Origin: an uncultured Armatimonadia bacterium
Lineage (GTDB): Bacteria > Armatimonadota > Zipacnadia > UBA1398 > CAZMGT01
Direction: 5' to 3'
Length of the DNA stretch: 64,000 nt
NCBI GenBank assembly: GCA_964565895.1
Contig: CAZMGT010000002.1
Coordinates: 78,510 to 142,509 of the forward strand
Made by a program: the position numbers and the translations under genes. Shown here in pieces: positions 36,366 through 61,596 of this stretch (position 1 is its first letter; every line of letters starts with the position of its first letter). The notes below the pieces were generated by a model. The model was given only the letters and a program-made list of their open reading frames with translations, ran no database searches and was not told the origin of the DNA.

Positions 36366-38789
36366 ATGTCCTGTCTTTTGCTCGCGCTCTCGCTGGCAAC
36401 GCTGCTGCTCGTGCACGACGCCCAAAGCGCCGAACCAACCGTTGAGCGCTGGGGCATCTTCGAGGTTGAGCTTAAGCAACAAGGCGAGTACGAAAACCCG
36501 TTTAGGCAGGTGTTCCTAAAGGGAACGTTTCGCTGCGGGGAAACGACGATCGTTTGCCACGGATTTTACGACGGAGGGAAAACGTGGAAGATCCGCGTCA
36601 TGCCCACTGTCGTTGGGCGCTGGAGTTATCGCACGGAATCAAACGACCCTGGGCTTGCCGGCAAGACGGGCGCCTTTCGCTGCGTCCCTCCCTCAAAGGG
36701 CAACCATGGGCCAATTGTCGTGCGCAACACCTATCATTTCGCCAATGCCGACGGCACACCTTATTACCCCGTGGGGACAACGCTTTACAACTGGCTTCAT
36801 CGCGAGGAGCAGTTGCAAGAACAAACACTTCAAACATTGCGCCAACACTGCTTTAACAAGGTTCGCTGCTGCGTTTTCCCCAAATGGTATACCTATAATC
36901 ATGTAGAGCCGCCACTTTATCCGTGGCCCAAAAAAGAAAACGGACAGTTCGACTACGACCGATTTAACCCGGAATACTTCAGACATATCGAACGCCGACT
37001 CAACGATCTCTTGGAGTTAGGAATCATCGCCGACCTTATCTTGTTCCACCCTTACGATAAATGGGGTCACTCAAAGATGACCCCGGAGCAGGACGATGCT
37101 TACCTAAAATATGTAATCGCGCGGTTTGCTGCTTTTCGCAATGTGTGGTGGACGCTGGCGAACGAATATGACCTGGTAAAACCGCCCAAGAATTGGGACC
37201 ACATCTTTCAGCTAATACGCGATCTCGACCCCTACGACCACCCGCGCTCTATCCACAATTGCCGTGAGTGGTACGACCACGGCAAGCCCTGGGTTACCCA
37301 CTGCAATATACAAAAGCAGGGGGGCGATGTATATCAGACGGCTGTCCAGGCACGGGAGAAGTATGGCAAGCCCGTGGTGATCGACGAGTACGGCTACGAG
37401 GGCGACGTCAAGCAGCGCTGGGGTTCGCTTTCCCCCGAGGAGGAGACGCAGCGGCACTGGGCCGCGGCGCTCGCCGGGGCTTATGCCTCGCACGGCGAGA
37501 CGTACTATAACCCCGAGGAGAAGCTATGGTGGTCCGTCGGAGGCAAGCTGATCGGAAAAAGCCCCGCGCGCATTGCCTTTCTCAAACAAACAATGGCCGC
37601 CGCGCCATACGAGGAGATGGCCCCGGACCCGCAGTTTTCCCCGGGCGATTACGCCTTGTGCAAAAAGGGCGAATATTACCTCGTCTACCTCACCAGCGAA
37701 GCCCCGCGCACCCTTTCCCTGCCCGCCGACCTGCCCTTTCGCGTGGACGCCATCGATACGTGGAACATGACGATAACCCCGCTCAACGACGTTCTCGACG
37801 GCCGGCTAACGTTCACGCCGCCGGGGCCGTATTACCTGCTGCGCATCGTGGCCTATGGCGCGGGCGAAAGGCGGCGGCCGCGCGCCGAGGGAAGCGTCGA
37901 GCCGCGCGAAGGCGTCGCTCCGCTTGCCGTGCGCTTTTCCTGCCCGGGCAACCTTCCGGTGCTCTGGGACTTCGGCGACGGCGCGCGCTCCGCCGAGCGC
38001 GTCGCCCAGCACACCTACGCAAAACCAGGGCTTTATCGGGTCTCGCTTACCGTAACCGATGACCGCGGGGAAAAGGCCACGCAGTTTTTCACCATAGCCG
38101 CCGACGTTGCGCTGGGCGAGCCGCTTGTGCGCGTGGGCGTTGCCCAGGGCGAGGCGCCGGCGGTTGCTTTTCGCGGGCCGGTGGCGCGGACAGCAGACGG
38201 CGGGCTAAACTTCGGCGCGGGCGAGCCGTGGAAATGGGTTTCCGTGGGCGAGGGGCCGCTTGCTCAGCTCGAAGGTCTGCGCTCGTTTACCATCCTCGGC
38301 TGGCTCAAGCCCGTCGCCTTGCAGACAGGCAGCGGCGGAAACCGCATTGCTTTTAACCTAAACTACAACAAATCCGGCTTCGACCTTGTCCACCTCAGCG
38401 ATGGGCGGCTGAGGCTCGCCGTAAACGAGTGGCCGGACAAAATCTCAAACGACAGCTCGCCGGGAAAGCTCAAGCGCGGACAATGGACGTTCTTCGCTGT
38501 CTCCTACGATTCGACCAAAGACAAAGACAATGTTTGTTGGTATTTTGGTGACCTTAATACTCCCGCATCGCTCGACAAAACAAATACCTATAATCGTGGG
38601 CCGACAGGTAGAAATAGCGGCCCATTAACCGTGGGAAACTACAACGAAACGATCCATCGCCACGGGCTAGACAGACAGTTTCGTGGAATAATCCATGCCC
38701 TTCACATTTTCGGGAGCAAGATTTTTCGCTCGGGTGTGCTAGACCCAAAGACAATAAGGGAGCTACAAGCAAAAACACAACCCAAGTAG
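36366..38789 (+). CDS. secreted multi-domain glycosidase-like protein: DUF5060 plus DUF4038 (GH140-like) core, a PKD domain and a C-terminal LamG/ConA-like lectin domain
   Basis: A GGGAGG RBS is present. The signal peptide is LLLALSLATLLLVHDAQSA. DUF5060- and DUF4038-like N-terminal regions (WTLANEYD) are followed by a PKD signature WDFGDG...HTYAKPGLYRVSLTVTD and a LamG-like tail. GC is mosaic (see findings). Confidence 0.5.
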   Translation: MSCLLLALSLATLLLVHDAQSAEPTVERWGIFEVELKQQGEYENPFRQVFLKGTFRCGETTIVCHGFYDGGKTWKIRVMPTVVGRWSYRTESNDPGLAGKTGAFRCVPPSKGNHGPIVVRNTYHFANADGTPYYPVGTTLYNWLHREEQLQEQTLQTLRQHCFNKVRCCVFPKWYTYNHVEPPLYPWPKKENGQFDYDRFNPEYFRHIERRLNDLLELGIIADLILFHPYDKWGHSKMTPEQDDAYLKYVIARFAAFRNVWWTLANEYDLVKPPKNWDHIFQLIRDLDPYDHPRSIHNCREWYDHGKPWVTHCNIQKQGGDVYQTAVQAREKYGKPVVIDEYGYEGDVKQRWGSLSPEEETQRHWAAALAGAYASHGETYYNPEEKLWWSVGGKLIGKSPARIAFLKQTMAAAPYEEMAPDPQFSPGDYALCKKGEYYLVYLTSEAPRTLSLPADLPFRVDAIDTWNMTITPLNDVLDGRLTFTPPGPYYLLRIVAYGAGERRRPRAEGSVEPREGVAPLAVRFSCPGNLPVLWDFGDGARSAERVAQHTYAKPGLYRVSLTVTDDRGEKATQFFTIAADVALGEPLVRVGVAQGEAPAVAFRGPVARTADGGLNFGAGEPWKWVSVGEGPLAQLEGLRSFTILGWLKPVALQTGSGGNRIAFNLNYNKSGFDLVHLSDGRLRLAVNEWPDKISNDSSPGKLKRGQWTFFAVSYDSTKDKDNVCWYFGDLNTPASLDKTNTYNRGPTGRNSGPLTVGNYNETIHRHGLDRQFRGIIHALHIFGSKIFRSGVLDPKTIRELQAKTQPK

Positions 38790-38890
38790 CATTTGCTGTG
38801 GGGAGAATTGCAGGCACCTTACTGGATCATGTCGCGCACGGAAAGTATTGTGGTGGCCTTCATAGGCCGAGGGGAGGGTGACAAAGAAAA

Positions 38891-40114
38891 ATGAGAAAGC
38901 GCCTTGAACCCTCGGTTTTCAGGCTGCCCATTCACGACATAAGACACGGGTTTTTCTCCGCCGTTTACTTTTGGAGAACAAAACGTGTATTAGAACAGGA
39001 CAACAGACACCCCACAATTACCCACCAAATTTTCCAGAAAAAGGAGAACGTGATAATCTGCGGGACAGACGAAGCCATTGCCATATTGAAAACGGGCACC
39101 GGTTACTACAAAGATTACAGCGCAGCGGCCGAGGCATTTGAGCAGCTTGCGCAACTGCGCCAACAGGCCGACGCCGCACTGCGCGCTCGCGACTATCACG
39201 CGCACAAGAAGTTGTGCGCAAAGTGCGCCGACCTTTCGCGCAAGCTAGACGAGCTCTGGGTGGACTGCTTCGATCGCATCCAAGTGTGGTCGCTTTACGA
39301 TGGCGATCGCCTTTCTGCGTGGGAGACGGCGATGCTCATCGAGGGCGACTATTCGCTCTTCGCCCATCTAGAGTCGCTCTATCTCGGGGTGCTCGCCCGG
39401 CGCACGAAGATCGCCACAAACACACGGGCCCTGGCCGAGGCCGCGCGGGGGAAGCCCGTTTTATACTTCGCGGACCGCTTCGACTACTTCCTCGCCCAGC
39501 CGGGCGACGGCCACGCCGCACAAGTCGGTGGCGCGGCCGGGGTGTGCACGGACGCCATGGCCGCGCTGTGGCAGGGCCGCGGGCTGGGGACCATTCCCCA
39601 CGCGATGATCGTCGCCTACGGCGGAGACACGGCGCTTGCCGCGGAGAAGTTTAACGCGTTCTTGCCCACGGTGAACACGATCAGCCTGGTGGACTTCGAC
39701 AACGACTGCGTAAACACGGCGCTCGCCGTCGCCCGGCGCCTCGGCGAGCGCCTGTGGGGCGTGCGCATTGACACGGCGGAAAACCTCGTCGACCGCTCGC
39801 TGCAAAACCTTGCCCACCTGCCCGACGAGGAAAAATATGGCCCCGTGCCGCTGCTTGCGGAGAAGGTCCGCCAAGCGCTGGACCGCGAGGGGTTTGGGCA
39901 CGTTAAAATCGTCGTCTCCGGCGGGCTAAACCCGGAGAAAATCGCGCGGTTTGAGGAGCGTGGGGCCCCAGTCGACGCCTATGGCGTGGGAAGCTGGATT
40001 CTCTCCGGGCGGTTTGACTTTACCGCCGACGCTGTGCGCTTGGAAGGGAAAAATCTGGCCAAGGTGGGCCGCGAGTATAAGCCCAACGATCGCCTCGAGC
40101 TCGTGCGCGGCTAG
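38891..40114 (+). CDS. pncB: nicotinate phosphoribosyltransferase (class II, about 400 aa)
   Basis: This is NAPRTase family by length and layout. It lies directly upstream of a nicotinamidase gene, giving an NAD salvage pair. Confidence 0.55.
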   Translation: MRKRLEPSVFRLPIHDIRHGFFSAVYFWRTKRVLEQDNRHPTITHQIFQKKENVIICGTDEAIAILKTGTGYYKDYSAAAEAFEQLAQLRQQADAALRARDYHAHKKLCAKCADLSRKLDELWVDCFDRIQVWSLYDGDRLSAWETAMLIEGDYSLFAHLESLYLGVLARRTKIATNTRALAEAARGKPVLYFADRFDYFLAQPGDGHAAQVGGAAGVCTDAMAALWQGRGLGTIPHAMIVAYGGDTALAAEKFNAFLPTVNTISLVDFDNDCVNTALAVARRLGERLWGVRIDTAENLVDRSLQNLAHLPDEEKYGPVPLLAEKVRQALDREGFGHVKIVVSGGLNPEKIARFEERGAPVDAYGVGSWILSGRFDFTADAVRLEGKNLAKVGREYKPNDRLELVRG

Positions 40115-40137: not shown

Positions 40138-40710
40138 ATGACCGCGGTGACCATCGACCGCGCCCGCGATGCGCTGATTATCGTGGACTTGCAAAATGAC
40201 TTCTGCCCCGGCGGGGCCCTTCCCGTCCCTCGGGGCGACGAGATCGTCCCCATCATTAACGCGCTTGTGGAGAAGTTCGACCACGTCTTTGCCACGCAGG
40301 ACTGGCACCCGGAAAACCACGTTTCATTTAAAACACAAGGCGGGCCCTGGCCCCCGCACTGCGTCCAGGGATCGCCCGGGGCGGAGCTGCACCCCAACCT
40401 GCGCGCGGAGAACGCCGTGCGCGTGCGCAAGGGGACCAACCCCCAGCGCGAGGCCTACTCCGGCTTTGAGGGGACCGACCTTGCGGACAAGCTGCGCGCT
40501 GCCGGCGTGCGCCGCGTGTTCGTGTGCGGCCTGGCCACGGACTACTGCGTTAAGGCCACAGTGCTCGACGCTCTGCGCGAGGGGTTTGACGTGGTTGTCG
40601 TCTCCGACGCCGTGCGCGGGGTTGACGTAAAGCCCGGAGACTCCCAAGCGGCGCTTGAGGAAATGAAGGCCGCCGGGGCGGCGGTAGTCGCTTCGAGCGA
40701 GATTTGCTAG
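40138..40710 (+). CDS. pncA: nicotinamidase / pyrazinamidase (isochorismatase family)
   Basis: IVDLQNDFCPGGAL is the PncA N-terminal motif. The catalytic Cys lies in VFVCGLATDYCV. A GAGGAGG RBS is present. Confidence 0.7.
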   Translation: MTAVTIDRARDALIIVDLQNDFCPGGALPVPRGDEIVPIINALVEKFDHVFATQDWHPENHVSFKTQGGPWPPHCVQGSPGAELHPNLRAENAVRVRKGTNPQREAYSGFEGTDLADKLRAAGVRRVFVCGLATDYCVKATVLDALREGFDVVVVSDAVRGVDVKPGDSQAALEEMKAAGAAVVASSEIC

Positions 40711-40878: not shown

Positions 40879-40944
40879 TGAAACCGCTCTTCTAATTCGG
40901 GCCCGCAGAAACGACTCGCTTTGTACACAAGGCAGGAGCTAGCC

Positions 40945-41586
40945 ATGGCTGCGGAGAAGCTTTCGCGGCGGGAGCGAGAGCGCGAGAGGCACCGCGAGCT
41001 AATCTTGCACGCCGCGGAGAGGCTTTTTGCGGAAAAGGGTTTTTATCGGACGACGATGCAGGAGATTGCACAGCGGGCGGAGTTTGCGCTAGGGACGGTA
41101 TACCGCTTTTTCCGGGGGAAGCAGGAGCTTTATGAGCAGCTTTTGGAGCGCAAGCTGCAGGAGCTTGTAGCGACGGTTTGCGACCAGATGGCGCAGGAAC
41201 AGTCGCCGTTGGGGCGGGTGCGCAAGTTTATCGAGGCCAAGCTTACGTTCCTCGCCGGAAACGCCCACTTCGCCCGCCTGTTCTTTGCCGAAGCCCATGC
41301 CTGGCGCTCCTCCGTGAGCCAGCGCTTGGAGCGCAAGCTGCGCGACAAATATAACGACCTCCTCGACAAGCTCAGCGGAACGTTCGAGGAAGGCATGGGC
41401 CAGGGCATCTTTGCTCAAACCGACCCGCGCTTGCTTGCCCTAGCCCTCGATGGGCTAACCAGCGCGCTTGCCCTGCGCTGGGCGGAATGGCGCGAGCAAA
41501 GCAGCGATGTTTCGCCAGCGTCGGAAATCGAAGCCGCCAAGCGGCTTTTCCTGCAGGGCGTGCTTGCCCGACCGCAGACAATGTAG
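40945..41586 (+). CDS. TetR/AcrR-family transcriptional regulator
   Basis: The HTH is FAEKGFYRTTMQEIAQRAEFALGTVYRFF. An AGGCAGGAG RBS precedes the ATG at 40945. Confidence 0.7.
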   Translation: MAAEKLSRRERERERHRELILHAAERLFAEKGFYRTTMQEIAQRAEFALGTVYRFFRGKQELYEQLLERKLQELVATVCDQMAQEQSPLGRVRKFIEAKLTFLAGNAHFARLFFAEAHAWRSSVSQRLERKLRDKYNDLLDKLSGTFEEGMGQGIFAQTDPRLLALALDGLTSALALRWAEWREQSSDVSPASEIEAAKRLFLQGVLARPQTM

Positions 41587-41631
41587 TCCTAGCGCTCGAC
41601 TCATCCTGGGCCACGGGGAGATGGGTGAGCT

Positions 41632-43095
41632 ATGGACTGGCAAACGGTGTTCCGCAACGATTCCTTGCGCGCCGTGCTGCGCACGTTGATTTCCTATGGC
41701 TTGTTCCGGCAGGGCACGATCCGGTTCATCGAGCGCAAGGCGCAGGAGGCGTTGCTCTACGAGGACGCCTATGGCCGGCCGCTGCAGGTGCAGGAGGACA
41801 AAAAGGCCCTCCTTTCCGCTGTGTTGCACAGCATCGATCGCGGCATTGAGCGCGGGCTGATATCCAAGCGCGTGCTCGACCGTGCCCTGCGCATCTTCCT
41901 CCTCGATGTCCTGTGCAGCCGCGACATCCGCCTTCGCGCGCAGGAGCGCTTGGGGTTTATGCCCCCCCTGTTTGTGACCATTAGCCCGACGATGAAGTGC
42001 AACCTGCGCTGCCCCGGGTGCTACGCGACAAGCGCCCCGCACTGCGAGGCCAAGCTCGACTGGGATACGTTCGACCGTATTCTTACCGAGATGAAGGAGC
42101 TCTGGGGCTCGTGCTTTGCGGTAATCTCCGGCGGCGAGCCGTTTTTGTGGAACGACAACGGCCGCACGTTCCTGGACATGGCCGAAAAGCACGACTATCG
42201 CTTTTTCCTCGTCTACACCAACGGCACGCTCATCGATGACAAGCTCGCCCGGCGCCTGGCCGAGCTGGGCAACATTACCCCGGCCATTTCCGTGGAGGGC
42301 TATGAGGCGGAGACCGACGCCATTCGCGGCAAGGGCGTCTACAAGCGCATTCTCCGTGCGTTTGACGCCCTGCGCGAAGCGGGCGTGATGTTTGGCATCT
42401 CGATTACCGCGACGAGGCGCAACTGGGACTTAGTGACCCGTGAGGAGCTGTTTGACTTCTACTTCGAGGAGCAGGGCGCGCTTTACGCGTGGATCTTCCA
42501 ATACATGCCCATTGGGCGCAAGCACGCGTTCGACCTAATGGTCACCCCGCAGCAGCGGCTAGAGATGCTCCGCCGCGTTTGGCGCCTTGTGCGCGAGCGC
42601 AAAATGTTCATCGCCGACTTCTGGAACAGCGGAACGGCGAGCGACGGGTGCATCGCCGCGGGCCGCGCCGGCGGATACTTCTACATCAACTGGAACGGCG
42701 ACGTTACCCCGTGCGTGTTCATCCCCTATGCCGCGGCGAACATCTACGACATCTACCGTAGCGGGGGGACGCTGAACGACGTTCTGCAGACGCCGCTGTT
42801 TAAGCGCATTCGCGACTGGCAGCACGAATATGGCTATCAGCAGCCTGCGGAGAAGACGCGCAACTGGCTTTGCCCCTGCGCCATTCGCGACCATTTCGAC
42901 AACTTCCTTAAAGCGGCGCAGGAGTGCCCCGTGACACCGATTGACCCCGACGCCGAGCAGGCCCTCGGCGACCCGGAGTATCACCGCGCGATGATCCAAT
43001 ACGGCAAGGAGTTCGACCGCATTAGCAGCGAGATCTGGGAGCGCGAGTACATCGCCCCGCACAAGGGCGGCGATCAGCAGCGCGTCGCCGTATAG
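41632..43095 (+). CDS. radical SAM enzyme with a partial SPASM/Twitch-like C-terminal Cys cluster and an unusual N-terminal extension of about 125 aa
   Basis: CNLRCPGCY (CxxxCxxC) sits at about residue 130, after ISPTMK. GGEPFLW is the glycine-rich SAM motif. Later, DGCIAAGRAGGYFYINWNGDVTPC (a SPASM-like C...G.V.PC) and NWLCPC are present. It starts 45 nt after tetR. Confidence 0.55.
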   Translation: MDWQTVFRNDSLRAVLRTLISYGLFRQGTIRFIERKAQEALLYEDAYGRPLQVQEDKKALLSAVLHSIDRGIERGLISKRVLDRALRIFLLDVLCSRDIRLRAQERLGFMPPLFVTISPTMKCNLRCPGCYATSAPHCEAKLDWDTFDRILTEMKELWGSCFAVISGGEPFLWNDNGRTFLDMAEKHDYRFFLVYTNGTLIDDKLARRLAELGNITPAISVEGYEAETDAIRGKGVYKRILRAFDALREAGVMFGISITATRRNWDLVTREELFDFYFEEQGALYAWIFQYMPIGRKHAFDLMVTPQQRLEMLRRVWRLVRERKMFIADFWNSGTASDGCIAAGRAGGYFYINWNGDVTPCVFIPYAAANIYDIYRSGGTLNDVLQTPLFKRIRDWQHEYGYQQPAEKTRNWLCPCAIRDHFDNFLKAAQECPVTPIDPDAEQALGDPEYHRAMIQYGKEFDRISSEIWEREYIAPHKGGDQQRVAV

Positions 43096-45363: not shown

Positions 45364-45872
45364 TCTCCCGCTCCCTTCCCCCGGGCCTCGGCCAGGCGTT
45401 TGTTTAGCTGGGCAATGTGCCCCAGCTCCTCCTTAATTATCGCCTCAATGCGCTCCCGTCCGAGCCTCTGGGGAACGAGCTCGCGCATTTGCACATAGAA
45501 CACGATGGAGTCTTTTTCCAGCTCGATCGCCGTGGCCAGGATCTCCTCCAGAGGCTCGCCACCACGGAGAAGCTCCGCGGGGTCCTTGCGAATGTCGAAG
45601 ACATAGCCGTCGGCCATTGCGTGCAGGTAAAGCCCGGCTTCGCCCGTGGGGTCGAACACTGTGGCCCGGCGCTCGGCGGGGGAGAGCTCGCTGCGCATTT
45701 GGGCAAACGTGCGCTCGTGGTCCTCCTCCATTTTCGCCAGGTCAAGCAGGGCCTGGCGCGCTGGTCCCGAGGCGTTCTCCGCGGCCAGGTGGTAAAACCG
45801 CGCTCCATTGCGCTCGATGCGCTCGGCCATTTGCAAAATCTCGTCCGCGTTAAACGTAATGCTCATGCTCAT
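45360..45872 (-). CDS. ferritin-like diiron protein, rubrerythrin family (no rubredoxin domain)
   Basis: Two ExxH motifs (MEEDHERTF, EELGHIAQL) sit in a helical ferritin-like fold. A GGAGGAGG RBS is present. Confidence 0.55.
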   Translation of the reverse strand: MSMSITFNADEILQMAERIERNGARFYHLAAENASGPARQALLDLAKMEEDHERTFAQMRSELSPAERRATVFDPTGEAGLYLHAMADGYVFDIRKDPAELLRGGEPLEEILATAIELEKDSIVFYVQMRELVPQRLGRERIEAIIKEELGHIAQLNKRLAEARGKGAGE

Positions 45873-46013
45873 GCCTCCTCCGCGGGCGCTCGTTGCCTGG
45901 TTTCGCCGGCGGGTGCCTGGCGGGAGCCTCGGCGGCGAGCTATGAATATCAATAGCGCGCGTTTGCCAAAAGTTCCCCGCGCAGGCCGCGCTCGGGCGGC
46001 ATGCCCTGCTTGG

Positions 46014-47396
46014 CTACCAGCCGTAGCGCTCAGGGCCCCAGTCGCGCAGCTCGAGCTGTTGCTTGGCCAAAACGAGCTTTCCGCTGGGCAGATCCTCGTA
46101 GAGAATCACGCCCGGCCCGACGCAGCTATAGCAGCCGACCTTTACCCCAGGCATGAGAATCGCGTTTACGCCCGTGCGCGAATGGTCGCCGAGATACGAG
46201 GCGTTTGCCCCCACGCGAGGGATCTCCGGCCGGCCCTTTACCCGGTGCACGGTGGAGCCATCATCAAAGCGCAGCGTCCCGCATACCGTCGCCGCGCCGA
46301 TGTCCACCGCGCGCCCGAGCACCCCGCACACCTCGCAGTAGTGATACAGATACACCCGCTCGAACGTTACCCCGGCAAACTCCGCGCAGTGCGCGACAAT
46401 GCCAAACTCGCCCAGCGACGACCACGCGCCAACCTTGCAGTAATCCTCAACCCGGCAGTTTCGCCCGACGACCACCTGCCCCCCGAGGATCGCTCCGTTG
46501 CTAATCGTCGTGTTCTCGCCGACGATCGCGTCTCCCCCAATGACTACCCGCTTGCCGATGTGCACGTTCTCGCCGAGGACGAGCCTGCCCGAGATCTCCG
46601 CGCTGTCGCTAATCGTGCACGACCGGCCAATGCGCTCCTCGGGGTGCAGGGCGAGCAGGTGGGCGATCGCCGCGCGGTTGGCGGAGAGGATATGCCACGG
46701 CTTGTCAATGTCCACGCACGGCCCGCGGGCCTCCACCGCGGCGACGGCCACGCCGTCCTCGATCATCATCTGCAGCGACTGGGCGAGCTCCGCCTCGCGC
46801 GGGGGCATGCCGCCCACGGGGACGGCGGTCATTATCCCCGGGTTTTCGCGCAGGTGCTTAACGTGCGCCGGGCGCAGGGCAAACACCCCGCCCAGGCGGT
46901 GCGTTCCGCCGCGGGGGTGGCCCTCCACTCCGCGCACAACGCCGTCGCCAACGCTCGCGCAAATCCAGTCCTGCGGGCGCTCCCCCGCGAGAGGGACAAC
47001 GAGCGCCGCGGCCTCCGCCTCGCCCCGCTCCACTGCCTCGCGCACGGCGCGCAGGTCCTCGCGCGTCACGAACACATCGCCATAGACGACAAGCGCAAGG
47101 TCGAAATCCTCGTCCTCAAGCGCGGCAAGGGCGGCGTCCGCCGTTCCCGTGGGCTGCTCTTGGGTAATGTAGCGCACGCGCTCGCTCCACTGCCGCAGGG
47201 CATAGCGCACGCTCGGCGCGTTGTGCCCGACAACCACGTGAAGGCCCTCTGCGCCGCTGGCGAGCAGCTCCTCGGCGAGGTGGGCGATAAGGGGCTTTCC
47301 CGCAATGGGCACGGCGCATTTTTGCCGCAGCTCGCCAAACGGCCAGGCGCGGCTGCCCTTTCCCGCGGCAAGCACAACAACGCGCACCTGCGCCAT
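46014..47396 (-). CDS. GlmU-like bifunctional nucleotidyltransferase plus left-handed beta-helix acyltransferase
   Basis: VVVLAAGKGSRAWPFGELRQKCAVPIAGKPLI is an NTP-transferase motif. A long hexapeptide-repeat C-terminus follows. The start is at 47396 after a GGGAGGGG SD. Whether this is the true glmU is unresolved. Confidence 0.55.
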   Translation of the reverse strand: MAQVRVVVLAAGKGSRAWPFGELRQKCAVPIAGKPLIAHLAEELLASGAEGLHVVVGHNAPSVRYALRQWSERVRYITQEQPTGTADAALAALEDEDFDLALVVYGDVFVTREDLRAVREAVERGEAEAAALVVPLAGERPQDWICASVGDGVVRGVEGHPRGGTHRLGGVFALRPAHVKHLRENPGIMTAVPVGGMPPREAELAQSLQMMIEDGVAVAAVEARGPCVDIDKPWHILSANRAAIAHLLALHPEERIGRSCTISDSAEISGRLVLGENVHIGKRVVIGGDAIVGENTTISNGAILGGQVVVGRNCRVEDYCKVGAWSSLGEFGIVAHCAEFAGVTFERVYLYHYCEVCGVLGRAVDIGAATVCGTLRFDDGSTVHRVKGRPEIPRVGANASYLGDHSRTGVNAILMPGVKVGCYSCVGPGVILYEDLPSGKLVLAKQQLELRDWGPERYGW

Positions 47397-47435
47397 CTCC
47401 CTCGCCCCTCCCGCGTAAGCCACACCGCCCCGCTG

Positions 47436-48737
47436 CTAGCCCAGCTCCATCGCCGGCTCGCGCGGCGAAATTCCGTCCGGGTCGTTGGCCCGCGCGCCCT
47501 TTGGCGCGGGAACGGGGCCGGCGAGCAGCGGGTCGTCCGTCTCGTTCATCCACCGCTCAAGCCGCGCGCGCATTTCCTCGAGCACCTGCTTGTGCGCGGG
47601 GTCGGCGGCGAGGTTGTTCGTCTCCACGGGGTCGAAGATAAGGTCGTATAGCTGCTCCTCGGCGACGGGCCGCTCGCGCCAGCCGTGGGCCAGCCACAAG
47701 TCCTTGCTCGGGCTGTCGTCGCAGTTGGGAAGCACCGGCCGCGTCCGCCCGTCGAACCGCCGAATGTACTTCCACCGCCTCGTGCGCACGGCGCGCATCG
47801 GCTCATACGCTGCGTGATAGGTTACCTCGGCGAAAATCTCCTCGCGAATCTCCTCCGCCTCCCCGCGAATGAGGGGCATGAGCGACTTCCCCTGCAGCCA
47901 GGGCGGGGGATCGACCTCCAACAGCTCGCAAATCGTCGGATACAGATCGATTTGCGAGACGAGGGCGTCGCACACCCGGCCCCCCTCAAACCCTCCCGGC
48001 CCGCGCATAATGAGCATGACCCCGATCCCGTGGTCCGTCAGGTTGCACTTCATCCAGGGGAAGGCAATGCCGTGGTCTGTGGTGCAGATAACGAGGGTGT
48101 TTTCGGCAAGCCCCGCTTCCTCGAGCGCTTCAAGCACGATGCCAAACCCCTCGTCGAGCACCCGCGCGCTCGCCTTATAGCAGGCCATGTCGTAGCGCGT
48201 CTCCGGGGCGTCGGGAATGGGCAGCGGCGGCTGGCAATAGCGCGGGTCCTCCGCGGGCCCCGGCTCCTCGTAAACGCGGTGCGTGTCGTTAAACCCTGCG
48301 GAGAGGAAAAACGGCTGCTCCGGCTTTCCCCGCAGCCACTGCGCGACCACTTGCGCGCGCTCCGGCGCCCGCGGGGGAACGTCGGTAATCGTCTCGTCGT
48401 AGCCGATTACCGAGGGGTCGCGCGCGATGTGCTGGGTGCCGATGAGCGTCGAGCGATAGCCTGCGCGGCGCAGGGTGTGCACGATGTGCTTGCCGTAGTC
48501 GTTTAGCGAAAATCCGCGGTGCGCCAGGCCAATCATCCCGCAGCAGTGCGGATATTGGCCGGTAAGCAACGCGGCGCGGCTGGGAGAGCACGTCGGCCCC
48601 CCGCAAAACGCCTGGCGAAAGAGCACCCCTTGCTCCGCCAGCCGCTGAATGTTCGGCGTGGCGATGGCAAAGCCATAGGGTTGCACATAGCGCCCGCTGT
48701 CGTGCGAGTGGAGGTAGAGAATGTTCGGTCGTTCCAT
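47436..48737 (-). CDS. formylglycine-dependent sulfatase (arylsulfatase family) with no signal peptide
   Basis: CSPSRAALLTG carries the CxPxR sulfatase signature. The N-terminus MERPNILYLHSHD has no hydrophobic leader. A GAGGTG SD is present. Confidence 0.7.
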   Translation of the reverse strand: MERPNILYLHSHDSGRYVQPYGFAIATPNIQRLAEQGVLFRQAFCGGPTCSPSRAALLTGQYPHCCGMIGLAHRGFSLNDYGKHIVHTLRRAGYRSTLIGTQHIARDPSVIGYDETITDVPPRAPERAQVVAQWLRGKPEQPFFLSAGFNDTHRVYEEPGPAEDPRYCQPPLPIPDAPETRYDMACYKASARVLDEGFGIVLEALEEAGLAENTLVICTTDHGIAFPWMKCNLTDHGIGVMLIMRGPGGFEGGRVCDALVSQIDLYPTICELLEVDPPPWLQGKSLMPLIRGEAEEIREEIFAEVTYHAAYEPMRAVRTRRWKYIRRFDGRTRPVLPNCDDSPSKDLWLAHGWRERPVAEEQLYDLIFDPVETNNLAADPAHKQVLEEMRARLERWMNETDDPLLAGPVPAPKGARANDPDGISPREPAMELG

Positions 48738-54303: not shown

Positions 54304-55551
54304 TCAACCGCGCGGGAAGAGCTCGGCAAACGGCCTTGTGCCGATGCCCAGCCGCCCCTGCGCGTCCATCTCGCGCAAAAGGGGCATGGCCGGCGGCCTG
54401 CGCGCGCTCTTCGTCTCGGGCAGGAGCCTGCCCTCAATAACCACGTTCTCCGCCTTGCCGATGAGATAGCGCTGCTCCTCGCTTAGCCCGAAAAACCTGT
54501 TGTTTGCGATGATGATGTTGTTGGGCATGCACCCCTCTACGGGAATGCCGTTGTGCTTGCCATAGGAGACGGAGATCGCTACCAGTTCCCTAAACTTCGT
54601 CCGCGTGCGCAGGTTGCGAAACACGTTTTCGCAAATCAGCCCCGAGCCGTCGCGAATGCCCACCCCGTGGCGCAACTGCTCAAACACGTTGCGCTCGACG
54701 ACAAACGTGCCGTCCATCCCGGGGTGGGTGTCCACGGCGCATAGCTCATATTCGCTCTGGTCGTTGCTCCCCACGCGGTTGTGGACAAACTCCCAGTGCG
54801 TTTTGCGAAAGCCCGGCTTGTGCACGTATTTGCCCAAGCGCTTGGGGCTGCTCCAGTCCAGCGCTCCGTTGGAGGCCAGGGAGTGTCTGTTTTGCTCGAA
54901 GTTGTTGTCGCAGACCAGAACATATGCCCCGGAGTAGATGGCCACCCCATAGCCCAGCCCGCTGCGCAGATTGTGGTGAATGTAGCAGTGGTCCACCTGC
55001 GCCGTGGCTTCGTCGCAAAAGCTCGTGGCATAGCTAAACCCGAGCAGCTCGCAGTGGTCCACGCGCACGTTTTGCGCCCGCGAGACGAAAATGCCATAGG
55101 TGTTGTTCTCCTCGCTCGTCGTCGTGTCCGCACCGACAAGCTTCAGCCGCGTAAAGCGCACGCCGTCGCCCTGCACGCGAAACAGGCGCGTGCTGCGCGT
55201 CTTCGCCCGGCACACCGTGCGCGACCCTTCGCCCAGCACCGTAACCCCAGCGGGAACGGCAACCTGCTTGTCGAAAACGTACTCCCCCGCGGGCAGAAAC
55301 ACCACGCGCGCCCCGTCTCTCGCCGCCTTATCGCACGCCTCTTGCACCGCCTGCGCCGTTGGCGAAGACACGACAACGCGCGGGGCAAGCCGCTTTGCCT
55401 CCGCTGCGCTCAGGGGAACATCCGGCCCAACGGGCCCGCGCGGGCCGACGTCCACCTGCTCGCGCAAACCGCTTTCGTTCGCCGACTGAGCGACAGCTAG
55501 CGCGCCAGCGATAAGCGCAGCCGCCAGCGCAGCGCCCACACGCCGAGCCAT
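54304..55551 (-). CDS. secreted right-handed parallel beta-helix repeat protein (pectate-lyase / NosD-like fold)
   Basis: The signal peptide MARRVGAALAAALIAGALAVAQSA follows a GAGGGAGGGG SD at 55551. Repeated ..V.H..I..N... beta-helix rungs appear. The 125-codon N-terminal extension in the ORF track is rejected. Confidence 0.5.
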   Translation of the reverse strand: MARRVGAALAAALIAGALAVAQSANESGLREQVDVGPRGPVGPDVPLSAAEAKRLAPRVVVSSPTAQAVQEACDKAARDGARVVFLPAGEYVFDKQVAVPAGVTVLGEGSRTVCRAKTRSTRLFRVQGDGVRFTRLKLVGADTTTSEENNTYGIFVSRAQNVRVDHCELLGFSYATSFCDEATAQVDHCYIHHNLRSGLGYGVAIYSGAYVLVCDNNFEQNRHSLASNGALDWSSPKRLGKYVHKPGFRKTHWEFVHNRVGSNDQSEYELCAVDTHPGMDGTFVVERNVFEQLRHGVGIRDGSGLICENVFRNLRTRTKFRELVAISVSYGKHNGIPVEGCMPNNIIIANNRFFGLSEEQRYLIGKAENVVIEGRLLPETKSARRPPAMPLLREMDAQGRLGIGTRPFAELFPRG

Positions 55552-56171
55552 GGGCAACCCCTCCCTCATCCGTGCGCGCTCCGGCGCAAATCGCACGGCG
55601 CCTGGCGCAAAATCACCTGCCTCGCAGCACACGGCCAAACGCCAGCCGCACCGTGCGCCGAAGACACACCCAGCGCTCACGCTCGCCTCCCACATTGTAA
55701 CAGGAATTGCCCTCGCGCGGCGCACTATGCAAATCGCTCTCCCGCACGCGCTGCTAGGGCCTGCCATAGACACGGCGCGGCTGAGCGAGCAGACCGCCGT
55801 CAACAGCGCCCGGCGCGCCCGCGCGCGCTCAGCCGCCGAATGTGCACAGGCCGGCGTAGCGGCCCTAGGGCGCAGCAGGATCTTTTTAACGCTAGAAAAA
55901 AGTTCTGCCTTGACATTCGCGCGCACTCCGTGCCATTACTCGCTCACAGGCGCTGCCGGCTGCCTGTCGCCCCCAAACCCGCCGCTGACCGCGGCGAAAA
56001 AGCACCGGCCAGTGCGCGCAGCAGGCGCGGCAAGGCGCGCAGTGGCGCACATGCCCACCCGCCCCTGTTTTCCTGAAGATGGGAGGCACCCGCCCCGGCC
56101 CTCTGTTGACCGAAGCTTGGGGAAAGCATTATCCTCCCAAAGTTCGTGCAACAGCGGCCACAGCTCGGGGG

Positions 56172-57236
56172 GTGTGTGCCATCGTCGAAATCGACGGCGC
56201 GATAGGGGAGGGCGGGGGGCAGGTCCTGCGCACGGCGCTTGCCCTAAGCGCCTTGCTGCGCCGGCCGCTGCATATCGTTAACATCCGCCGCGGGCGCGAC
56301 AAGCCCGGCCTCCGCCCGCAGCACCTGGCCGGCGCGCGCGCCGTGGCCGAAATTACCGGCGGCCGGCTCGAGGGCGACGCCGTGGGCTCGCTCGAGCTCC
56401 GCCTTTTTCCCGGAAAACCACGCCCCGGCCGCTATATCTTCGACGTCGCCGAACAACGGCGCAGCGCCGGGGCGATCACCCTCCTCGCGCAGACCATTAT
56501 GCCGATCATCGCCCTCACCCCTGGCCCCTGGCGCGTGACGCTCAAGGGCGGGACACACGTTCCGTTCAGCCCGCCGTTCGACTACTTCGACGATGTCTTT
56601 TTGCCCGCGCTCGAGGCGATGGGCGTCTACGTTGCCGCGCGCCTGGACTCCGCCGGTTTTTACCCCCACGGCGGCGGCGTAGCGCACATCGAAAGCGAGG
56701 GCGCCTCTGCGCTTGCCCCGTTGTCCCTGGCTACGCGCGGGCCGTGCGAGCGCATCGAGCTGCGCGCGGTGATCGCCAACCTCAGGGAGGACATCGCCCA
56801 TCGCGAGCTGCGCGCGGCGCGCGAGGAGCTGGCCAAAGCGGGCTACCACGGCGTGCACCACTCGATATCGAGGCTGCGCTCGCCCGCGCCGGGGACGGTG
56901 CTTTTCGTGCTTGCCGAGGCCGCGCACAGCGTGGCCGGGTTTACTTCGCTCGGCCGCCGGGGTAAACGCGCGGAGACCGTGGGCATCGAGGCCGCGCGCG
57001 AGGCCGTCGCCTACCTCGACAGCGAAGCCGCGGTCGACCGCCATCTTGCCGACCAGCTCGTGCTCTATATGGCGCTTGCCCGCGGGCGCAGCGTGCTCAC
57101 CACGGAGCAAGTAACCAGCCACTTGCTGACGAATATCCAGGTCGTCAGCCGGTTTCTCGATGTCCAGTTTGAGGTCGAGGGCGAACTTGGCGCGCCGGGC
57201 ACAATTGCCGTCGAAGGGGTTGGCTTTTCCAGCTAG
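56172..57236 (+). CDS. rtcA: RNA 3'-terminal phosphate cyclase
   Basis: IDGAIGEGGGQVLRTALALSALL is the RtcA N-terminal signature. The typical length of about 350 aa fits. A GTG start is inferred. No rtcB or rtcR is adjacent. Confidence 0.65.
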   Translation: MCAIVEIDGAIGEGGGQVLRTALALSALLRRPLHIVNIRRGRDKPGLRPQHLAGARAVAEITGGRLEGDAVGSLELRLFPGKPRPGRYIFDVAEQRRSAGAITLLAQTIMPIIALTPGPWRVTLKGGTHVPFSPPFDYFDDVFLPALEAMGVYVAARLDSAGFYPHGGGVAHIESEGASALAPLSLATRGPCERIELRAVIANLREDIAHRELRAAREELAKAGYHGVHHSISRLRSPAPGTVLFVLAEAAHSVAGFTSLGRRGKRAETVGIEAAREAVAYLDSEAAVDRHLADQLVLYMALARGRSVLTTEQVTSHLLTNIQVVSRFLDVQFEVEGELGAPGTIAVEGVGFSS

Positions 57237-57260
57237 CCCCCACGCGGGAGGAGCGAACGT

Positions 57261-58100
57261 TTGATGGAATGCCAACTGGGTTGCATGACCATTCCCTACC
57301 GCCACTTTACGCTCCAGGAGGCGTTTGCGGGGATCGCTGCCGCGGGCTTTAAGTATGTCTGCCCCGGGCCGCACCATTTCGGCCGCGGGCCGGACGAGCC
57401 GGAGATCTCCGCGGAGAAGGTTGACGAGCTGAACAAGCTCGCCGAGGAGCACGGGCTAAAGATCGTCATGATCTTCGGCTGCCGCGGGCCGCTGAAGTCG
57501 CTGCACGATGTGCAGACGTATAAGCAGGACGTGGACGTTTGCGCAGCGCTGGGCGCGCCCTATCTGCTGACCATGGGCCCCTGGGCCTATGCTGAGGGAA
57601 TTATCCGCCGCAAACCGGACGAAGAGTGGAACGCCGACGTCGAGGCCTATTACCGCTGGATGAAGCCCGTCGCCCAGTATGCCGGGGAGAAGGGGGTAAC
57701 GATCCTCATCAAGCCCCACGCCAACGTCTGCGCCCACGCCAGCTTGTGCGTGCAAACCATTCAGGCCATTGGCTCGCCGCACGTGCGCATTTGCTACGAT
57801 GGGGGAAACGTCCACTTCTACGAGGGCATTGACCCTCACATCGATCTCTCCCTCTGCGCCGACTATGTCCGTGCGCTGGTGGTTAAGAATCATCGCGGCG
57901 GGCGCGGTGTGCGCGACTTTCCCCCGCCCGCCGAAGGCGATGTAGACCACGCCCGGCTGTTGCGCATCCTCAGCGAACACAACTTCTCCGGCCCCGTCGT
58001 CGTGGAGCGCCTGGGCGACTTGGAGGAGCTCGCGGCGATTAACGAGGAGGCGAAAAAAGCGTTTCGCTATCTTACCGAGATCCTCGGCTCCCTAAGCTAG
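57261..58100 (+). CDS. sugar phosphate isomerase/epimerase (xylose-isomerase-like TIM barrel)
   Basis: The AP-endonuclease-2 / xylose-isomerase-like TIM-barrel layout is present. It is a second paralog in this window. Confidence 0.55.
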   Translation: MMECQLGCMTIPYRHFTLQEAFAGIAAAGFKYVCPGPHHFGRGPDEPEISAEKVDELNKLAEEHGLKIVMIFGCRGPLKSLHDVQTYKQDVDVCAALGAPYLLTMGPWAYAEGIIRRKPDEEWNADVEAYYRWMKPVAQYAGEKGVTILIKPHANVCAHASLCVQTIQAIGSPHVRICYDGGNVHFYEGIDPHIDLSLCADYVRALVVKNHRGGRGVRDFPPPAEGDVDHARLLRILSEHNFSGPVVVERLGDLEELAAINEEAKKAFRYLTEILGSLS

Positions 58101-59295: not shown

Positions 59296-59982
59296 CTAGC
59301 CTTCCAGGCGATAGCCCACGGCGTGCACCGTTTGGATGATCTTCGGGTTTGAGGGGTCCTCCTCGATCTTCTTGCGCAGCCGGGCGATGTGCATATCCAA
59401 CGCGCGGCCCTCGAGCTCCGAGGTCCCCCAAATGTGCTCCATTAGCTCCTCGCGCGTGACCACCCGCCCCGCGTTGCGCACGAGAAACGTTAGGATCTCA
59501 AACTCCGTCCGCGTAAGCTCAATCTCGCGCGCGCCGACATATGCCGTGTGCCGGCCGAGGTCTATCTTAACCTTTCCCGCCTCGAGCGTCGTCTGGCCCA
59601 TCGTCGGCGCGGCATACTCCTTCGCTCGGCGGAGCAGGGCGCGCACGCGCGTGCGAAACTCCGCCGGGCGCACGGGCTTGCCCAGGTAGTCGTCCGCGCC
59701 CAGCTCCATGCCCACGACGAGGTCCGTCTCCTCGTCGCGCCAGGTAACCATTATGATCGGCACGTGCGACTCGCGCCGGAGCACACGGCAGACCTCCAGC
59801 CCGTCCATCCCGGGCATGACCACGTCGAGGATCACCAAGTCGGGGTTCTCCCGCCGGGCAAGCTCCAGCCCTTGCTCCCCGTCGGAAGCCTTGAGCACGT
59901 CGTAGCCTTCGTGTTTAAGCAGCGTCTCATATAGCTCCAGCGCTTCTGGATCGTCGTCAATGACCAAAATCCGCGCGCTCAA
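59296..59982 (-). CDS. OmpR/PhoB-family response regulator (REC plus winged-helix)
   Basis: The REC domain is ILVIDDDPEAL..DLVILDVVMPGMDG. The C-terminal Trans_reg_C is VGYRLEG. Confidence 0.75.
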   Translation of the reverse strand: MSARILVIDDDPEALELYETLLKHEGYDVLKASDGEQGLELARRENPDLVILDVVMPGMDGLEVCRVLRRESHVPIIMVTWRDEETDLVVGMELGADDYLGKPVRPAEFRTRVRALLRRAKEYAAPTMGQTTLEAGKVKIDLGRHTAYVGAREIELTRTEFEILTFLVRNAGRVVTREELMEHIWGTSELEGRALDMHIARLRKKIEEDPSNPKIIQTVHAVGYRLEG

Positions 59983-60038
59983 CGTTTACATTCCCTTCCC
60001 AGGCGAACTCTCCCGCCGCCTACGCCCCCGAGCCCGAA

Positions 60039-60710
60039 CTACGGGCGGTAGGGATAGCCCGACCTCGGCCGCGACCGCTCCGTGGCGCGCCACAGCGCCT
60101 CGTTGTCTTCCTCGGCCATCTCCTCGCGGCGGCGCAGGGGCTTGTAGTCCACGGCGTTTGCGCGCACCGTCTTGCGAAACTCCGCCTCGTTGGCGAGCAG
60201 CAGATGCAGCGTGCCCTCGGCGCGCGCCTCGGCGACTTGCCGCCGCCACTCGTGGGCGAGGACCTCCTCGCGCGAATAAGGCTTGGGAGTGGGCGCGAGC
60301 GGGGCGACTTCCTCCGCGGGAGCGGCCTCCTCCGCCGCTTCCTCCGGGGCGGCCTCCTCGGGCTCCGCCTTTTCCGCGGGTGCTTGCTCAGGCGCCGGGG
60401 TCGCCTCCCCCTTCGGGGTCACCTCAATGGGCGCAGCCCCCGCGCCCTCCTCGAGTGCAGCACCCTCGGCTTCCTCGAGCATCTTCTCCTCTTCCGCGGT
60501 CTGCCGGGCCTTGCGCGCGGCAACCTTTTTCGCCTTCCCCGGCTGCTTGCCCAACTCGCGCGCAATGCGCGGAATATTCTGCCCCACTACAGGCAGCAGC
60601 GCAGGCTCGGGCCCCGCCGCGCGCGCCAAAATCTCCCCGCCCCAGACAAATGCGGCGAGCGCCCCCACGACGCACGTCGCTATCCCTAGCGCAAATATCG
60701 CCCTGCTCAC
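60039..60710 (-). CDS. hypothetical N-terminally membrane-anchored protein with an Ala/Glu/Pro-rich acidic low-complexity region
   Basis: The TM anchor is IFALGIATCVVGALAAFVW. Then comes EEAEGAALEEGAGAAPIEVTPKGEATPAPEQAPAEKAEPEEAAPEEAAEEAAPAEE. No known domain is present. Confidence 0.4.
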   Translation of the reverse strand: MSRAIFALGIATCVVGALAAFVWGGEILARAAGPEPALLPVVGQNIPRIARELGKQPGKAKKVAARKARQTAEEEKMLEEAEGAALEEGAGAAPIEVTPKGEATPAPEQAPAEKAEPEEAAPEEAAEEAAPAEEVAPLAPTPKPYSREEVLAHEWRRQVAEARAEGTLHLLLANEAEFRKTVRANAVDYKPLRRREEMAEEDNEALWRATERSRPRSGYPYRP

Positions 60711-60774
60711 TGTCCCTTCCCCTCGCTTCCACTGTACGCCCTCGCCGCACGACTAGCAAGCGGCCTAAGCTGCG

Positions 60775-61596
60775 CTACCACGTCAGCTCCATGCCGTCGA
60801 ACGCTACTTCTACCCCCTGCGGCTCAAGGCGCTCTACGAGCTCGTCGTGCAGCAAAAGCCCGTTGTGCGAAAAATGCGTGGCCACAAACCGCGTGCCCTC
60901 GTCCACGCAGCCGATCTCCGCGAGCTTGGCCTTTACAGACAAAACGTCGGGAATTCCAAGATGGTTTTCCCCACACTGGCGCTTGCCGCAAGTGCAGTCC
61001 ATGACAACAACGCTCAGCCGCTTACCCGCGAGGAACTCCCATGTCTCCTCGGGATACCACCCCGTGTCGTTGCCCTGGAGCAGGTAGCGCCCGTTGGCGC
61101 AAAGGAGGAAGTTCAGCGCGACCTCTTCCTCTGCGGCGTGGCTGGCGACGATCGGCGTGGCCTCCAGGCCGTCGGGCAGGGAAACGGGGCGAAACGGCTC
61201 TAGCTCGACAAACTGCACGCTCAGAAGCTCCAGCTCCTCCGCGCCCTGGCGCAGCTTGCGCCCCACGGCGGCGTTGCCGTAAATACGCAGGGGCGCGGGG
61301 GGCACACCGGCCCAGAATCCCTTGCGCCTCATGTTTAGCTCGTGCGCGCAAAAGTGGTCCTGGTGGCTGTGCGTTATCAGCAGGTCGGTAATGTTCGCCA
61401 GGCAAATGCCAAACCGTACCGACTGCACGTAGATATCCGGCCCAAAGTCAATGAGCACGCGGCGGCCCACGAGATAGGCCGCCCGCAAGCGCAGGTTCTT
61501 GCCCCCCAGCTCGCGCGCCTTGCGGCACACTGCGCAGTCGCAAAAAATTCCCGGCCAGCCCTCTGCGGCCGCCGTGCCAAGGATCTTAAACCTCAT
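60775..61596 (-). CDS. MBL-fold metallo-hydrolase (PhnP-like)
   Basis: THSHQDH is the beta-lactamase-fold HxHxDH motif. Confidence 0.6.
   Translation of the reverse strand: MRFKILGTAAAEGWPGIFCDCAVCRKARELGGKNLRLRAAYLVGRRVLIDFGPDIYVQSVRFGICLANITDLLITHSHQDHFCAHELNMRRKGFWAGVPPAPLRIYGNAAVGRKLRQGAEELELLSVQFVELEPFRPVSLPDGLEATPIVASHAAEEEVALNFLLCANGRYLLQGNDTGWYPEETWEFLAGKRLSVVVMDCTCGKRQCGENHLGIPDVLSVKAKLAEIGCVDEGTRFVATHFSHNGLLLHDELVERLEPQGVEVAFDGMELTW

Follow-up and report, generated by a model that had tools for sequence, protein, structure and literature searches.

Two low-GC tracts in a glycosidase-pncB locus of an uncultured Armatimonadia bacterium: a candidate case of fragmentary lateral transfer

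When prokaryotes acquire DNA laterally, breakpoints that fall inside genes are common (Chan, Beiko, Darling and Ragan 2009, PMC2817436), and one transformation event often gives rise to several discontinuous donor segments at a short distance from each other (Lombardino et al. 2026, PMC13344027). Additionally, homology-facilitated illegitimate recombination is known from naturally competent bacteria as well as from E. coli (PMC3240628). The locus described here is compared below with all three. It lies in a stretch of 64,000 nucleotides (nt) of contig CAZMGT010000002.1 from an uncultured Armatimonadia bacterium, hereafter the window, in which a gene for a secreted glycoside hydrolase-like protein of 807 amino acids (36366-38789, forward strand; below, the glycosidase gene) is followed by a 101-nt spacer (38790-38890, forward strand) and by a pncB-like nicotinate phosphoribosyltransferase gene of 407 amino acids (38891-40114, forward strand). 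Two tracts of strongly lowered G+C content (GC) are found in this locus, the first inside the glycosidase gene and the second running from its 3' end into the 5' end of pncB. Of the explanations weighed below, the one that we favor, with reservations, is a fragmentary lateral transfer.

A compositional mosaic across two adjacent genes

In 200-nt windows over the whole 64 kb, the mean GC is 0.650 with a standard deviation (SD) of 0.048, and values below 0.53 are confined to approximately 36684-37296 and 38336-39187. A two-state hidden Markov model (HMM) with GC states of 0.665 and 0.485, run across all 64 kb, delineates exactly two low-GC tracts, an outcome which is independent of the switching penalty. 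These are patch 1, at 36456-37338 on the forward strand (GC 0.52, with the core below 0.53 at 36684-37296), and patch 2, at 38339-39119 on the forward strand (GC 0.485), which is a single unbroken tract. With lengths of 780-880 nt, both fall 5-6 SD under the GC of equal-length windows. The 1 kb separating them (37339-38338) has a GC of 0.667, the 6 kb upstream a GC of 0.672, and the spacer upstream of the glycosidase gene a GC of 0.60.

A preliminary description of this DNA, made from the letters alone, had reported low-GC segments at 36750-37330 and 38480-39150 on either side of a high-GC middle at 37340-38400. Quantitative recomputation upholds this picture: GC is non-uniform, at 0.503 in the first segment (against a mean of 0.654, an SD of 0.029 and a minimum of 0.580 for the remaining windows of that length), 0.480 in the second (minimum of other same-length windows 0.587) and 0.655 in the middle. 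Sliding windows and the HMM single out these two tracts only, and both AT-rich strings quoted in that description are present where it had put them. However, the background is 65-67% GC, as seen in the window mean and the upstream 6 kb, and not 67-70% as had been stated. The claim that the second segment crosses the spacer into pncB also stands; its right end had been placed at about 39150, and the pncB-side border is uncertain between 39119 and approximately 39316 according to the HMM and fits of GC at third codon positions (GC3).

In terms of the encoded proteins, patch 1, as delimited by the HMM, the 200-nt scan and a GC3 change point at codon 286/330, covers residues ~31-324 of the glycosidase, i.e., the end of the DUF5060 domain and most of the catalytic domain, and its GC3 shoulder extends back to the start codon of the gene. 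The host-like middle on the forward strand, with a GC3 of 0.78-0.79, had been equated with a PKD domain alone; it also contains the end of the catalytic domain, DUF5605 and the start of a LamG-like domain. Patch 2, delimited by the HMM and by GC3 (change points at 38517 and 39163), has its left end within the LamG-like domain and comprises the last ~150 glycosidase codons, the 101-nt spacer (GC ~0.525) and the first ~76-91 codons of pncB. Since the end of one gene, a spacer and the beginning of the next, stop and start codons included, all lie in this tract, the signal belongs to a tract of DNA and not to a protein domain.

GC in the patches is lowered at all three codon positions and most at the third. 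When expected GC3 is conditioned on the amino acids and on the codon usage of 32 other genes of the window, patch 1 (36681-37331) shows an observed value of 0.594 against an expected 0.799 (z = -7.7), the glycosidase part of patch 2 (38400-38786) 0.540 against 0.817 (z = -8.5), and pncB codons 1-86 0.571 against 0.786 (z = -5.1). The corresponding values are 0.782 against 0.816 in the glycosidase middle (z = -1.7) and 0.811 against 0.817 in the rest of pncB (z = -0.3). Measured over 90 codons, the z-scores of the three low parts are -6.2, -7.9 and -5.1, the lowest among 750 reference windows being -4.7. The codon repertoire shifts in parallel: AGA supplies 21% of arginine codons in the patches as opposed to 1% in host genes, the shares of ACA (0.34 versus 0.08), GAA (0.50 versus 0.15), CAA (0.57 versus 0.23) and AAT (0.39 versus 0.08) rise likewise, and AAA is also elevated. 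Amino-acid composition was rejected as the cause of the drop, with expected GC3 at 0.79-0.82 and observed GC3 at 0.54-0.59; because both the conditional GC3 and the codon shares shift, composition alone is insufficient. Hence, the drop lies mainly in synonymous codon choice and has the dialect of a lower-GC organism. Change-point fits place GC3 at 0.63 for glycosidase codons 1-286, 0.78 for 287-717 and 0.46 for 718-807, and at 0.58 for pncB codons 1-91 and 0.82 for 92-407, with codon 142 as an alternative border in pncB. Taken over whole genes, GC3 is merely mildly low, at 0.69 in the glycosidase gene and 0.77 in pncB.

Two observations concern the codon reference itself. The longest open reading frames (ORFs) at 45417-48506, 56244-57980 and 59960-61087 were excluded from the codon reference; they combine a GC at first codon positions of 0.80-0.85 with a GC3 of 0.66-0.72, or have a GC at second positions of 0.75, and a different frame or the opposite strand probably carries the true genes there. 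Within the reference set, conditional GC3 is lowest in the gene at 54304-55926 (reverse strand; z down to -4.7, GC3 0.66-0.70), a mild compositional outlier that is far weaker than the patches.

Comparison with homologues shows that the dip is not a general property of either gene. The nearest glycosidase homologues come from high-GC DNA, namely P0002 (67% identity, locus GC 0.68), P0003 (64%, 0.655) and P0006 (59%, 0.69), and in homologues from genomes of 65-69% GC the counterparts of the patches show GC3 values of 0.77-0.97. Across 11 glycosidase homologue loci with GC from 0.37 to 0.68, GC3 is near-uniform over four segments. Similarly, in 81 pncB homologue loci the GC3 of the first 86 codons minus that of the rest ranges from -0.14 to +0.10 (from -0.12 to +0.08 in the ~45 high-GC loci), the value of -0.23 in the window being the most extreme. 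The preliminary description had proposed looking for the same dip in high-GC orthologues, where it would have indicated selection rather than foreign origin; in the comparison made here, the dip is absent from them. A family-wide constraint was rejected on the same 11 glycosidase and 81 pncB loci, and by this comparison the patches are specific to the present lineage. A pncB homologue on a contig of 42% GC (L016:10001-11224, Logan SRR14699978) has a milder dip of its own, GC3 rising from 0.32-0.45 over the initial ~120 codons to ~0.63 over codons 121-240; among the 82 genes, its difference of -0.14 comes second in extremity after the window.

The near-uniform GC3 of these loci also bears on the possibility that selection favored AT-rich DNA or RNA at these sites, for instance as an internal pncB promoter, a binding site for nucleoid proteins, messenger RNA (mRNA) that is weakly structured where pncB begins, or clusters of slow-translation codons. 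That patch 2 takes in the upstream region and first codons of pncB, and that glycosidase protein conservation is highest in the segments under the patches (58% and 62% mean identity, compared with 42% and 51% elsewhere), would be in line with such selection. However, tracts of 780-880 nt far exceed the reach of start-codon or promoter effects. Further, there is no Rfam family above threshold (the lone match, to a fly long non-coding RNA model, reaches 25 bits where the gathering score is 80). The spacer contains neither promoter-like nor terminator-like sites, such sites are not in excess over shuffled sequence, and overlapping or antisense ORFs in the patches have no Pfam match. Together with the uniformity of the homologues, these results leave selection for AT-richness with a slim chance of being the explanation.

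Domain shuffling was likewise rejected. The same five-domain Pfam architecture is present, at full length or longer, in 120/120 of the top glycosidase homologues, and the patch borders lie inside domains, specifically the catalytic and LamG-like ones. This tells against the domain-level mosaicism which the preliminary description had offered as one option: the architecture is old and shared, and it is the DNA that is mosaic.

As the source is evidently a metagenome assembly, and the matching contigs all come from a few related samples, a chimera of a high-GC and a low-GC organism assembled from one metagenome has to be considered. However, the same junctions occur in a MEGAHIT contig from ENA (L001; 21,267 nt matched without gaps and with 19 mismatches) and in a JGI contig from a separate data set (L015; 3,356 nt matched, 4 mismatches). 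These other assemblies are ~99.9% identical to the window, the single-nucleotide polymorphisms (SNPs) being scattered, and one SNP, at 39046, falls inside patch 2. Four junctions are common to the three assemblies, which differ by SNPs. Both genes are moreover in frame and collinear with their homologues, and genomes of 65% and ~50% GC would rarely share the long exact k-mers that would be needed at each of the four junctions. The mosaic thus exists in a natural population, and a chimera is very unlikely, with a probability close to nil. As a general caution, a sharp step in GC within a gene of a metagenome-assembled genome need not be a chimera.

Possible origins of the patches

The composition of the patches provides a rough estimate of where such DNA might have come from. 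In a regression over 72 pncB loci, the GC3 of the gene predicts the GC of its flanks (r = 0.94); on this scale, patch GC3 values of 0.46-0.63 correspond to a source genome of ~0.41-0.52 GC, and the value of 0.82 for the remainder of pncB to 0.64, which is near the host. Further, relative to the residue held by most of the nearest homologues, the low-GC3 parts show 33 losses and 9 gains of glycine, alanine, arginine and proline (GARP), compared with 15 losses and 11 gains in the middle, and this loss of GARP residues fits a longer history under lower GC. The nearest pncB relatives that could be examined belong to genomes of 42-51% GC, which is compatible with a lower-GC source while picking out no single one. 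Exact nucleotide matches to high-GC homologues are longest at the right border of patch 1, with 38 nt at 37365, 27 nt at 37380 and 26 nt at 37224, and several of 14-17 nt occur at 38424-38484, close to where patch 2 has its left border; at such borders, diverged homologues could most feasibly undergo exchange.

From these features we infer a foreign origin, an approximate source GC and recombination as the mechanism. Specifically, foreign DNA would have come from a moderate-GC (~41-52%) bacterium carrying homologues of the same genes, and donor segments would have replaced the matching parts of the resident glycosidase-pncB locus by recombination, either in one import or in two neighboring ones, leaving a discontinuous donor-recipient-donor mosaic. 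Such replacement, being homologous position for position, would account for the intact reading frames and proteins. We judge this fragmentary lateral transfer to be moderately probable. The suggestion in the preliminary description of a horizontally acquired or recombined patch, as opposed to a whole-gene transfer, thereby gains compositional support from the foreign codon usage, the homologues without the signal and the crossing of a gene boundary.

Several results weigh against this fragmentary transfer. At the protein level, the same proteins are nearest to the glycosidase in its N-terminal part, in patch 1 and in the middle, with no clear incongruence, and over patch 1 the window protein sits in the P0002-P0006 clade like any other member (72-78% identity to it, compared with 71-81% within the clade). 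The N-terminus of pncB (64-67% identity) and the rest (66-70%) also have the same nearest relatives. The expectation, raised in the preliminary description, that different segments would find their best matches in different lineages is therefore not borne out, although the nearest orthologue has at most 67% amino-acid identity and the nearest homologues are 64-69% identical, so that segment-wise resolution is poor. Patch 1 is about equally close to P0246 (on L098, from a genome of 53% GC) and to P0002 (from a genome of 68% GC). When the two patch segments were joined as a protein query for a donor, nothing above 80% identity was found (best 75-80%, or ~74% at the nucleotide level), and collections of plasmids and phages gave distant matches or none, with nothing donor-like. 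The donor would need to have the same gene order, and a glycosidase gene followed by pncB is seen at 0/17 glycosidase loci and 0/81 pncB loci. Moreover, a donor of ~50% GC and a recipient of 65% GC would share just ~65-75% nucleotide identity, which is low for RecA-type exchange, and the GC-defined border in pncB (39119-39163) coincides with the least conserved stretch of the gene; the GC3 fit lets this border reach ~39316, beside a conserved block. The last 107 residues of the glycosidase are ambiguous, the window protein being slightly more distant there from all homologues.

Other searches were also negative. The best match in a collection of genome contigs reached 54%, and exact look-ups of pncA and of a 53-residue rubredoxin, aimed at diverged sister strains, returned the same population only. 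An exact look-up of the window's glycosidase protein, and one of P0242, found no entry. No repeats, template-like copies of patch sequence or flanking repeats were found within 34-42 kb, and no reverse transcriptase among the neighboring genes; a target of a diversity-generating retroelement was rejected in view of the missing template repeat and reverse transcriptase. The window is without a transfer RNA (tRNA) gene, and neither an integrase nor a transposase is encoded in the 10 kb upstream of the glycosidase gene or the ~8.8 kb downstream of it. A genomic island or whole-gene transfer was set aside accordingly, as the genes are atypical in part only and tRNA genes, flanking repeats and mobility genes are lacking. 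Within the glycosidase family, one homologue (P0004, JGI, 794 amino acids) is itself a mosaic at the protein level: its residues ~91-390 are 75-87% identical to P0002/P0003 and 49-68% to P0011, and residues 1-90 and 391 onward are nearer P0011 (65-93%) than P0003. By these identities, the catalytic core seems to have been exchanged between clades of this family, which speaks for a fragmentary transfer at the present locus.

The depression of GC3 from the very start of the glycosidase gene (0.63 over codons 1-286), along with the GC of 0.60 in the spacer upstream, raises the alternative of a single import of ~2.9 kb that carried the whole glycosidase gene and the 5' end of pncB. It would have been anchored by pncB homology and joined illegitimately upstream, with the middle 1 kb later converted by a resident paralogue. 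The adjacency of glycosidase and pncB is unique to this lineage and could itself have been made by the import, pncB and pncA are a conserved pair, and homology-facilitated illegitimate recombination provides a precedent (PMC3240628). Nevertheless, since the middle is fully host-like (GC 0.667, GC3 0.78-0.79), an extra conversion event is required, and no paralogue is present in the 64-kb window to supply it. The middle and patch 1 also share their nearest relatives, and the region is without flanking repeats, tRNA genes and mobility genes. We hold this single import to be unlikely.

The same lack of a foreign signal in the protein phylogeny, with no long branch in patch 1, could alternatively indicate that the DNA is native and changed in place, through a local decay of GC-ending codons brought about by AT-biased mutation or repair limited to the tracts, or by the loss of a force that maintains GC. 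Such a process would disregard gene boundaries, as patch 2 does, and requires no donor of the same gene order, nor was any donor found. However, bringing GC3 from the expected ~0.80-0.82 to ~0.54-0.59 means that a large proportion of GC-ending sites was altered in less than 1 kb beside unaffected sequence. Additionally, the rise of AGA to 21% of arginine codons and the change from GGC to GGA or GGT are unlike simple C-to-T/G-to-A deamination, and no further tract of this kind occurs in the 64 kb. We know of no tract-limited process of that sort in bacteria, and regard change in place as distinctly improbable. One form of it, in which tract-limited AT-directed mutation or repair, as a bacterial counterpart of clustered hypermutation, rewrote much of the GC-ending synonymous sites of native DNA over 0.8-0.9 kb and selection kept the proteins, would explain why there is neither a foreign protein signal nor a donor of this gene order, but we give it only a small fraction of belief.

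The genes of the locus and their surroundings

The glycosidase contains DUF5060 (residues 25-93), Apiosidase-like (121-380), DUF5605 (432-494), PKD (528-577) and Laminin_G_3 (638-784) domains in Pfam searches. The match to PF13204 (Apiosidase-like), with 72.9 bits against a cut-off of 26.5 over residues 121-380, supports assigning the product of 36366-38789 as a putative GH140-type glycoside hydrolase-like protein. Its nearest solved structure is 4n0r, an uncharacterised 'putative glycoside hydrolase' (E 1.9e-106, residues 25-473). In two JGI 3300009034 contigs (L003:22328-22427 and L004:12611-12710), the glycosidase homologue that ranks second in closeness is followed ~10 kb downstream by a gene with a Pfam HZS_alpha match (hydrazine synthase alpha-like), a neighbor that may hint at the type of organism or habitat.

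The pncB product carries the Pfam QRPTase_N/C domains, matches PDB entries 2i14 and 1ytd, and has homologues named nicotinate phosphoribosyltransferase (NAPRTase) in their source records; its gene is low in GC at the 5' end only. Against NCBIfam PRK07188 it scores 354.9 bits, compared with a cut-off of 378, in an alignment limited to residues 128-405. Residues 1-127 (38891-39271), which lie outside that alignment, are conserved in 24 aligned relatives, as exemplified by the invariant Y26, F27, W28 and R29. Approximately 40 soil-type homologues are ~58 residues shorter, their matches spanning 1044 nt for residues 2-405, which suggests that residues ~75-125 are a variable insert specific to a subfamily. 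Directly downstream follows the pncA nicotinamidase gene (40138-40710, forward strand; Pfam Isochorismatase; NCBIfam PRK11609 with 187 bits against a cut-off of 174), which has a host-like composition and, like the names of the homologues, lends support to the NAPRTase assignment. It is the customary downstream partner of pncB, and the pncB-pncA adjacency recurs at other loci. Directly after pncA, the region 40921-43095 encodes a TetR-family regulator and then a radical SAM/SPASM-domain protein, again with host-like composition; this pair suggests a small unit related to peptide maturation or cofactors.

Relation to described systems

The locus is a clean natural example of what would be sub-gene lateral transfer, of a kind that gene-by-gene methods based on composition or trees would dilute or miss. 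If the import is real, recombination can join sequences that differ by ~25-35%, and the habitat also harbors an unsampled relative of ~41-52% GC in which glycosidase and pncB are arranged in the same way. In functional terms, patch 2 puts AT-rich DNA just upstream of and over the start of an operon for the salvage of nicotinamide adenine dinucleotide (NAD), which could alter its regulation.

Genomic islands and whole-gene transfers resemble the patches in being atypical for the host in GC and codon usage, but the tracts here are less than 1 kb long, constitute parts of genes, and come without a tRNA gene, flanking repeat, integrase or transposase. Homology-facilitated illegitimate recombination (PMC3240628) could explain how foreign DNA ends in frame within pncB, with its other end in or near the intergenic region. 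However, it predicts one continuous foreign block and not two with a host-like middle, and the locus has no identifiable anchor sequence. A closer likeness is to the discontinuous donor segments of transformation (Lombardino et al. 2026, PMC13344027), as ~1 kb of recipient sequence separates two donor-like segments of a few hundred bases. The genomes in that work were similar enough for homologous exchange, whereas the divergence implied here is ~25-35%.

Fragmentary lateral transfer and mosaic genes (Chan, Beiko, Darling and Ragan 2009, PMC2817436) share with this locus the sub-genic tracts of different origin in an intact ORF, borders that fall off domain and gene limits, and a function that has presumably been kept. 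The evidence here differs in being compositional, with neither phylogenetic breakpoint support nor a donor found. In comparison with the classic mosaic genes of close species, the GC contrast is much larger, at ~0.49-0.52 against 0.65-0.67. The patches would represent an event that is ordinary in kind and unusually sharp in form, notable for its GC contrast, its sharp borders and its crossing of a gene junction.

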